DNA of 64,000 bases from Eledone cirrhosa (lineage: Eukaryota): positions 17,918,001 through 17,982,000 of the forward strand of contig OZ024750.1 in assembly GCA_964016885.1 (NCBI GenBank), read 5' to 3'. Made by a program: the position numbers and the translations under genes. Under the pieces are notes generated by a model. That model was not told the DNA's origin. It searched no databases and worked only from the letters and a program-made list of their open reading frames with translations. Below, piece by piece: positions 55,401 through 60,927 of this stretch. Within the stretch, counting starts at the first letter, position 1. Every line of letters begins with the position of its first letter.

Positions 55401-58400
55401 CATTCAATTCCGTTCTTAAGATTGCTCTTACTCTGCGGTAACATTCCTTCCTTATCCTTTCCCTCATTGTCGAGTGCTTGATTCCGTCTCCTTCACAAAC
55501 ACCTAGATATTTGTAAGTTTTTTCTTGATCAAGTTCTCTTATCACGTTCCCCCGATCAAGATTAATGTCTGAACTCTTCAGCAGCTTTCCTCTGGTGAAA
55601 TATGCTTTGTCGCATTTATCTAGTCTCATTATTATTATTATTATTATTATTATTATTATTATTATTATTATTATTATTATTATTATTATTATTATTATTA
55701 TTATTATACTATAGACTTTTCTGTTTATATATCATTTCACAGCTAAAAACTGTGGCTGATTCTCTGGTTTCCCCTGAGCAAACCACCGAAGGTGACATGG
55801 TAATTATCATCATTTCTTTATGTTGCCTTACGTTGTTATTTTCAGGTTTCTTGGTCTCATCATCATCATCATCATCATCATCATCATCATCATCATCATC
55901 ATCATCATCATCATCATCATCATCATCGATTAACATGGATCTTCTACGCTAGCATTTTTTTTAATGATTCGATCTTATCAGCGGGTTATAACCAGGTGTT
56001 CTCATGGGTAGCAAGGAATGTTCATGTAACATAATATCTTCATAGCTGGCTTTAAAAATCGATCATTCTAGATTTCTGATAACTATTACTTTCATTGTTT
56101 AATTTAAAAGCTCTGAATGTTGATCTGATTTTGAAGATTTACTTTGGTATAAACAAGACAAAATTCAACACACAGATAACGCAGAAAGGACATTTCGATG
56201 GCGTAAAAGAAAAATTAACCATGTTCGAATTTCTTTCTTGCTTACCCCAAGCAAGGCCACTAAAATGCAAGGGCCTACTGTGAAGGGAAAGAACAAGACT
56301 GATAAAAGATAATTCAGCGAGAGAGATGACGATTTATGTTGCTTTTGAATTTTTGCAAATTGTGCTGGCCAGGAAAGCAAAACGTCCGAAGAGACTTCTA
56401 TAGACGAGCTGGGTGAGGGGATAAACTAGCAGTATAGAATTTACAATTTAGGAACTTCAACGGTAAATGGATGAGATCTAGTCACCAATCTGGTGATCTA
56501 TTTAAACTCAAGAAGATGAAGCAATAAAGAGGAAAGCTTGTCAGGACAATTCCCATGAAAATATTTATAAAAAAGACATAGAGAGGTAACATTTCGATGG
56601 TGTGATAGTGATTGAAGCTGAGACGATAAGTCAGAGTGGCACAACCTGTTCCAATTTGTCCTAATGTGCAATGGAATAAACAGTATCAACCTTAATGTTT
56701 CAAAACCATAGTGATTTCCAGAGTTTGACTGAGGAAATGGGACTGTCCTTCTTTCTGGGGATTTTTTTACACATAAATTTTACCAGAATTCTCGTAGTCT
56801 CTACCAACCGGTGGTTTCGTTCCTCTTTTTGGATAGACCGTGTCCTGGATAAATCCACGAGGCTCGGAACTTATCAGGAGATACCCCAGACTGGACTAAG
56901 TTTCGTCTACCATGTCCGTGTAGTTAACTATATGTCTAGTCAATTTCTACAGGCTAGAAGAAATAATTAGATAAGTGTCATATAAGTACATCGCGGAAAA
57001 GAATCTGTATCATTTGTCTATTATTTCTTCATAAGTACATTTTAAATATATATATATATATATATATATATATATATATATATTTATATATATACACGCA
57101 CACAGATATTTCTCTATATCTATTCTTTCACAGCAAGCTCCTGACCAGACTGTTAGAGGTTCCAAAGATCAAGTTATCGAAGGCGTGCCGGTAATTATTT
57201 TGTCGATAGTTGCATGTTCTTACCATTTTACACACACATATATATATATCTGTCTATTTTTTTATCAATCTCTCTCTCTCTCTCTCTCTCTCTCTCTCTC
57301 TCTCTCTCTATATATATATATATATATATATATATATATATATATATATATATATATATATATATATATATATATAAGCATAACAATATATATTTATATA
57401 TATATATATTTATATATATATATATATACACACAGATATTTCTGCCCTTTGGCAGCCATCTTGTTACCCATAAGCAGATCTCACACAATGCAGCCTCGAC
57501 AGATGAATACTGCTTGATTATGGCTGACAACTGATGCAACCAAGACACCATAGTAAAAACCAATATATGGAACATTATATTATGTAACATTCTCTCATTA
57601 TTTTAATTATCGGTAGAGGGTCGGACGCCATACTTTCCAGCATAGTTACGTCCCTTTACGATCTGAGTTAAAATCCCGCCGAGGTTGACTTTGCCTTTCA
57701 TCCTTACGGGGTCGATAAAATAAAGTACTAGTAATGCACTGGGTAATTGCTGGCCTTGTGCCTAAAGTAGAAACAATTATTTTAATTTATATTCCTTTGA
57801 AGTTCCGATGAGCCGCTCTGTCTTTTAAATATGTTAATTATTTTCAACTGAACCAGATCCATTATGATATATAGTCATCTGATCCAGAAATATTATATGG
57901 AGTAGCGAAACAATTGTAAACGGACATTATTATTATTAATATTATTATTATTATTCTCTACATTCCTTACATCAAACTAAAATATGTTGACAACCTTTTA
58001 ATAATATCTTCCTTGTGAAATTTGTGGTCTTGTTTTGCTTAACTAATGAATATTTATATATATATATATATATATATACACGCACACAGATATTTCTCTA
58101 TATCTATTCTTTCACAGCAAGCTCCTGACCAGACTGTTAGAGATTCCAAAGATCAAGTTATCGAAGGCGTGCCGGTAATTATTTTGTCGATAGTTGCATG
58201 TTCTTACCATTTTACACATATATATGTATATATCTGTCTATTTCTTTATCTCTCTCTCTCTCTCTCTCTCTCTCTCTCTCTCTCTCTATATATATATATA
58301 TATATATATATATATATATATATATATATATATATATATATATATATATATATATATATATATATATATATATAAGCATGACAATATATATTTATATATA

Positions 58401-60927: not shown

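Follow-up and report, generated by a model that had tools for sequence, protein, structure and literature searches.

A short, exon-bearing segment of one gene of Eledone cirrhosa occurs three times in direct succession, with pieces of a Penelope-like element (PLE) between the copies (array 2), and a second array of similar build lies upstream of it (array 1). The original prediction held that the same process had happened twice in this gene, by a recurring mechanism. Did the insertion of these elements duplicate the exon, or were inserted elements and exon copied together at a later time? We addressed this question in a window of 64,000 nucleotides, the whole stretch of DNA that was analysed, and all coordinates below are those of the window unless stated otherwise.

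Array 2 and the identity of its inserts

The order host-insert-host-insert-host was confirmed at 57046-59277, with three copies of the approximately 0.4-kb host segment at the limits given in Table 1. The insert is absent before host copy 1 and after host copy 3, where the host runs into a paralogous exon (exon B) at 59297 on the same strand. Each host copy contains a predicted 57-nt exon in phase 0 with intact AG/GT. Exon B has CAC in place of CAG at its acceptor and is probably a pseudo-exon. The unique part of the host copies (1, 3 and 4 differences per 140 sites) has four matches in the genome, namely the three copies and exon B, all at this locus. The duplicated segment has 23% GC and TA tracts at both ends, and CACACAGATATTTCT stands directly 5' of the insert after host copies 1 and 2. 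In public contigs of one sample (possibly the source of the assembly), the depth of the exon-A contig is 2.5-2.7 times that of the exon-B contig; contig depth is not copy number, and the ratio argues against an assembly artefact as the origin of array 2.

Table 1. Features of the two arrays (positions in the window)
Feature	Position	Strand	Remarks
Array 1	31758..45497	+	11 host copies (~387 bp, each with an intact 57-nt exon) and 10 intervening P1 3' fragments (~950 bp)
Host copy 1	57046..57443	+	(TA)n, acceptor, exon A1, intron with (TC)n(TA)n, 15 bp of next acceptor region
Predicted exon A1	57134..57190	+	57 nt, phase 0, AG/GT intact
Insert P2a, PLE 3' fragment	57444..58053	+	family unit positions ~2748-3179; SINE inside
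SINE-like dispersed repeat in P2a	57608..57786	+	includes one copy of its 11-bp duplication
Hammerhead-like motif of P2a	57802..57921	+	
Host copy 2	58054..58423	+	predicted exon A2, 58118-58174
Insert P2b, PLE 3' fragment	58424..58854	+	431 bp; 2 differences from the majority of dispersed copies
Type I hammerhead-like motif of P2b	58603..58722	+	core CCGATGA at 58606-58612 (U4C)
Stem II of P2b motif	58613-58619 with 58701-58707	+	one mismatch; followed by GAAA and CAATTG stem III
Predicted cut of P2b motif	after 58719	+	
Host copy 3	58855..59277	+	predicted exon A3, 59000-59056
Exon B, older paralog of exon A	59297..59353	+	~85% identity; acceptor CAC

The expected insert length of about 430 bp holds for P2b (431 bp) and not for P2a (610 bp), the difference of 179 bp arising because a dispersed repeat, which we take to be a SINE, sits inside P2a with its 11-bp duplication. 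As it is found in P2a only, this repeat is most simply younger than the amplification of the array. P2a and P2b have just one difference from the family majority in common, and 4 of 427 sites distinguish the two; to judge from the sequence, the insertion and the host duplication of array 2 are indistinguishable in age. Among other repeats, SINE-like units of about 175 bp stand in tandem over ~2.9 kb from 63500-64000 into the adjoining region L092, and a 12-bp satellite fills 105-3144 with 253 copies.

We assign the array-2 insert to the 3' end of a dispersed Hydra-clade PLE family, here P2, the clade being assigned from motifs and TA flanks. A 25-mer from the 3' part of the insert has 1,807 exact matches in the genome (reversed control, 0), and dispersed copies are 98-99% identical to the insert, which bears out the predicted dispersed PLE origin and excludes single-copy intronic DNA. 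Its predicted PLE-like end at (TA)n was also found: the 3' end corresponds to unit position ~3179, one of two fixed 3' ends of the family (the other being 3363), in (TA)n. The 5' end, at unit position ~2748, adjoins the commonest class of inner ends (2750-2799, 18/138 arms). This cluster of inner ends lies beside a GCCATCTTG motif (cf. 58424-58445), which is presumably YY1-like, and it may be the pLTR transcription start.

In other P2 copies, a reverse transcriptase (RT, YRDD) and then a GIY-YIG endonuclease can be read upstream of the insert region. The Pfam search of the P2 protein gave no RT match, and its GIY-YIG match (16 bits, E 0.016) is under the cut-off of 22.6. RWK is present in 5/5 and DKT in 4/5 near-full copies, the linker and zinc motifs read CNCRYPNAC (CxCX5C), CDLC (CxxC) and CQH (CxH), and most of the 80 + 40 sampled P2 loci, all of them occupied sites, have (TA)n flanks. 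Hydra-clade PLEs as described by Craig et al. 2021 (PMC8557442) are alike in domains and motifs (C-terminal GIY-YIG, RWK, DKT, a CxCX5C linker, CxxC/CxH around a conserved E and N), in (TA)n targeting and in inverted and tandem insertion. They differ in being generally shorter than 3 kb, whereas the P2 unit measures 3,363 bp, and in a canonical hammerhead core, in place of which P2 has U4C and a long stem II. Long host duplications, as seen at the P2 locus studied here, find no mention in the text of PMC8557442 on the Hydra clade.

The array-1 insert belongs to a second dispersed Hydra-clade family, P1. The two inserts had been called unrelated, which is right for DNA (best match 13 nt) but not for protein (29% over 114 aa, E 4e-14), and the P1 protein has the same CxCX5C-type linker. 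Two further elements were seen in the window: a PLE-like fragment with a GIY-YIG reading frame at 47540-49060, noted by eye, and a Hydra-like PLE at ~61050-63200 (RT 52% to P2) whose inverted arm is apparently short, with a canonical hammerhead core and no host duplication.

The hammerhead-like motif

A hammerhead fold with palindromic stem III had been proposed for the insert. The palindrome CAATTG is indeed present, and GAAA-CAATTG-TA is conserved in the P2 family together with a 7-bp stem II with one mismatch (6/7 pairs). The remainder departs from the proposal: the core reads CCGATGA instead of CTGANGA (C at position 4 in 116/119 P2 copies), stem I has 3 bp, the loop of stem II has ~80 nt, and the canonical core CUGANGA...GAAA...UH is not matched. 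Stem II appears in the minimum-free-energy fold of one window copy and not in that of the other, and the expected Rfam hammerhead match was obtained neither on the whole window nor on the motif itself. Minimal hammerheads whose stem III is palindromic have been described in PLEs (PMC4209133), and U4C is a known natural variant, described as far weaker in vitro but as viable in a viroid (PMC3088659).

The distance of the predicted cut from the ends of P2b is 296 nt at the 5' junction and 135 nt at the 3' junction. Because the cut is far from both, the hammerhead does not define the duplication, in which it is a passenger. In array 1, the hammerhead core (32945-32985 and nine further units) reads TTGAGGA in 10/10 units, and CTGAAGA in most dispersed P1 copies; this sense intronic ribozyme may have been weakened before the amplification. 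Hammerhead cores were also found on both strands of two near-perfect palindromes of 424 and 374 bp (3571-3994 and 15864-16236), and a hammerhead element on the minus strand, lying in (TA)n and having a terminal repeat of 72 bp, was noted by eye at 49293-49817.

Tandem units each with a pLTR-related type I hammerhead-like motif are common to the arrays and to metazoan non-LTR retrozymes (bioRxiv 10.64898/2026.07.22.740005). In contrast to retrozymes, the array unit holds a single-locus host exon, starts and ends with host sequence and is undispersed. We rejected the array unit as a non-LTR retrozyme, the host part being single-locus and the insert a piece of an autonomous PLE.

Normal insertions and the origin of the duplication

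The sample of P2 comprised the 80 insertions on contig C1 that correspond to the first 100 of the 1,807 matches listed, and 40 of 78 variant-pattern matches on contigs C3-C28; for P1, the first 68 of the 945 matches listed make up 65 insertions, of which 60 were included. Flanking host duplication was seen in 0/120 further P2 and 0/60 P1 insertions (0/180; in one of these, L265, the upstream flank reads N), and the same search detected the window's own two arrays. The upper 95% bound on the duplication rate is ~1.7% overall and ~8% among the at most 36 single-arm P2 copies, some of which hide a short inverted piece. The best-match loci with 1.5-kb flanks (29 P2 and 20 P1, partly overlapping the main sample and not counted in it) likewise had no host duplication. 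A long host duplication is not the usual footprint of P1 or P2. This speaks against a mechanism typical of these elements, and the hammerhead stands at neither junction.

Several candidate host-PLE-host loci were rejected. Inspection of L130, L169, L121, L149 and L254 revealed an old insertion that had itself been copied, internal repeats, or dispersed repeats on either side, and L114, L123, L133, L145, L173 and L183 were ruled out from coordinates only. L130 is a segmental duplication of an existing insertion, one two-armed P2 insertion being present in two copies ~1.3 kb apart.

The usual product of P2 is a two-armed inversion in (TA)n (57/80 and 27/40 sampled insertions). One arm ends at 3179 and the other at 3363 in 73 of the 74 two-armed insertions with both ends classed (L101-L180, L245-L284); an optional tail on one inverted pLTR has been described in PMC3846280. 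Since the arms overlap in sequence, the inversions suggest two RNA templates or a multimer.

In array 2, the sequence 3' of the insert is the host start and the sequence 5' of it is the host end, so that a single-copy target is repeated directly at both ends of the element with the geometry of a target-site duplication. We estimate a probability of about 0.5 that array 2 is a ~0.4-kb target-site duplication made during PLE insertion and then multiplied by unequal crossing-over. Ahead of exon A, the GIY-YIG endonuclease would nick the bottom strand within the (TA)n, and the RT would copy the PLE RNA from its fixed 3' end. The other host end would not go on to prime a second, inverted arm in that tract, as it usually does; instead, the top strand would break immediately beyond the following (TA)n tract, ~370-400 bp downstream, and the cDNA would be joined at this break. 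Fill-in would yield host-P-host, and unequal exchange between host copies would extend this to host-P-host-P-host, with the SINE entering P2a later. The ages of inserts and host copies are compatible with such one-step duplication in array 2. Data from a second organism contained no contig on exon A and just repeat pieces at array 1, and a RAD run yielded no reads; neither an empty allele nor an ortholog of the locus was recovered from them.

Direct target duplications of hundreds of bases, like that of array 2, have been described for Dualen-4b_cRei (median 900 bp for Dualen) and R9 (126 bp) in PMC9977147 and for L1 in NER-deficient cells in PMC5223499, where duplications over 100 bp make up to 10% of events and exon duplication has been proposed. 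A PLE protein has been found to cut both strands of the target in vitro and to extend them (PMC11167929). In the open-access literature, supplements aside, we found no report of long target-site duplications by PLEs. The present arrays differ from those of Dualen, R9 and L1 in being fixed in a germline genome and amplified, with exons intact; over half of the Dualen insertions are duplicated (PMC9977147), whereas array 2 is a rare case in its PLE family.

Against a long target-site duplication stand the sampled insertions, in none of which (one with an unreadable flank) such a duplication was seen, and the end of the duplicated segment, which lies 15 bp inside a paralog of its own start, as recombination would yield likewise. 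Array 1 adds further difficulties. In both arrays the layout is host-(PLE-host)n, the PLE is in sense orientation and ends at a natural 3' end, and the duplication measures ~0.4 kb, which agrees with the same process acting twice. The junctions, on the other hand, differ: the P2 junction is a host (TA)n with microhomology of at most 1 nt at the 5' end, whereas the P1 target is a non-TA polypyrimidine tract, with ~5 nt of microhomology at the 5' end. P1 also looks older than the split of the first and last host copies, which are 3.9% apart, while the P1 units are 6.4-8.3% from the dispersed majority. All ten P1 units have 28 changes in common, 12 of which occur in none of 20 dispersed copies. 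For one-step formation of array 1 the ages are ambiguous, and its divergence fits duplication after insertion as well as homogenisation.

Duplication after insertion is possible, if somewhat improbable. A two-armed PLE insertion would have broken, and its trimmed left end, copied ~0.4 kb too far on an empty homolog or sister, would have been joined to the remnant of the right arm. This would accord with the prevalence of inverted two-arm products (57/80) and the single arm in both arrays, with the microhomology at the P1 junction and with the locus-private changes in P1, which predate the amplification. It is opposed by array 2, in which insertion and duplication cannot be told apart in age, and by the 180 sampled loci, many of them palindromic, among which no such product occurs.

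We regard as rather unlikely the broader proposition that Hydra-clade PLEs are local exon duplicators. At transcribed genes, distant nicks by their enzyme or its jump onto the nascent transcript would copy whole exons and their introns in place, and the arrays so seeded would enlarge a repetitive protein, as would have happened on two independent occasions in this gene.

A third course of events begins with a short-duplication insertion before exon B, followed by unequal crossing-over in a heterozygote between the (TA)n tract ahead of exon A and that ahead of exon B. The host end being a paralogous copy of the host start is what this would produce, and other exon duplications in the gene begin at microsatellites. 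The sequence after the TA tract is of the A type (CACG), however, which leaves the crossover no more than ~25 nt of TA after P2a; 0/23 single-arm copies had a short duplication of unique sequence; and array 1, at whose end host end and host start have no such paralogy, unlike in array 2, would be left unexplained. We consider this course very unlikely.

Little credence is likewise due to an RNA route, in which the PLE RT would have jumped from the element RNA to the unspliced target transcript, copying exon and introns into a cDNA that annealed back. It would explain the sense orientation of both inserts relative to the gene and the complete exon in each duplication; with n=2, sense orientation by chance has odds of 1 in 4. 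PLEs can move intron-containing host sequence: the Penelope capture in Adineta vaga (PMC3846280) resembles array 2 as PLE-associated copying of this kind. In the published captures, however, host DNA is framed by pLTRs and sits at a new site, with a duplication of 8 bp, whereas in array 2 the host sequence is outside the element and in place.

Least credible is a tandem duplication that arose by replication, its junction patched with a copy of a genomic PLE, and no retrotransposition on site; the TA-like tail carried by P1 and missing from the first host copy of array 1, and the wealth of tandem arrays in the region, would suit it, but each of the two patches stops precisely at a natural PLE 3' end.

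The host gene and the meaning of the arrays

A profile scan with the exon module gave more than 35 plus-strand matches from 22.8 kb in the window to ~29 kb past its end. These are mostly in-frame mini-exons of 33-57 nt that code for low-complexity peptides. A large collagen-repeat exon downstream (L093:8945-9997, Pfam Collagen E 1e-35) is probably part of the same mini-exon gene. In array 1, exon and intron vary alike (7/57 and 41/331 variable sites), and selection is therefore not demonstrated.

At least three older exon duplications in the gene have no PLE fixed at their junctions, namely A/B, a pair at ~73.8/76.4 kb and a triplet at ~89-93 kb (window-extended coordinates), and these mostly begin at microsatellites. 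Conversely, no flank duplication accompanies at least four further PLE-type inserts within or next to the gene. At a rate of ~1.7%, the rough chance of two events among ~8 inserts is below 1% per gene; the genome holds ~47,000 windows of 64 kb, and one such gene alone is therefore no proof of a special mechanism. The presence of a whole intact exon in both duplications suggests retention by the host gene. Under the preferred reading of a long target-site duplication, the event would have been rare, and it probably survived because this gene is made up of mini-exons that preserve the reading frame. Since such duplications were absent elsewhere in the sample and the gene duplicates exons without PLE junctions, a rare event that a permissive gene retained is a better fit than a dedicated mechanism.

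Being rare in both families, the arrays carry greater weight for the evolution of this gene than as a general mechanism. If the insertion made the duplication, the long target-site duplications of Dualen, R9 and L1 would extend to PLEs, and the second-strand step of PLE integration would be constrained. The locus would then also be a natural germline case of the exon duplication proposed for L1, with 3 + 11 intact in-frame copies.
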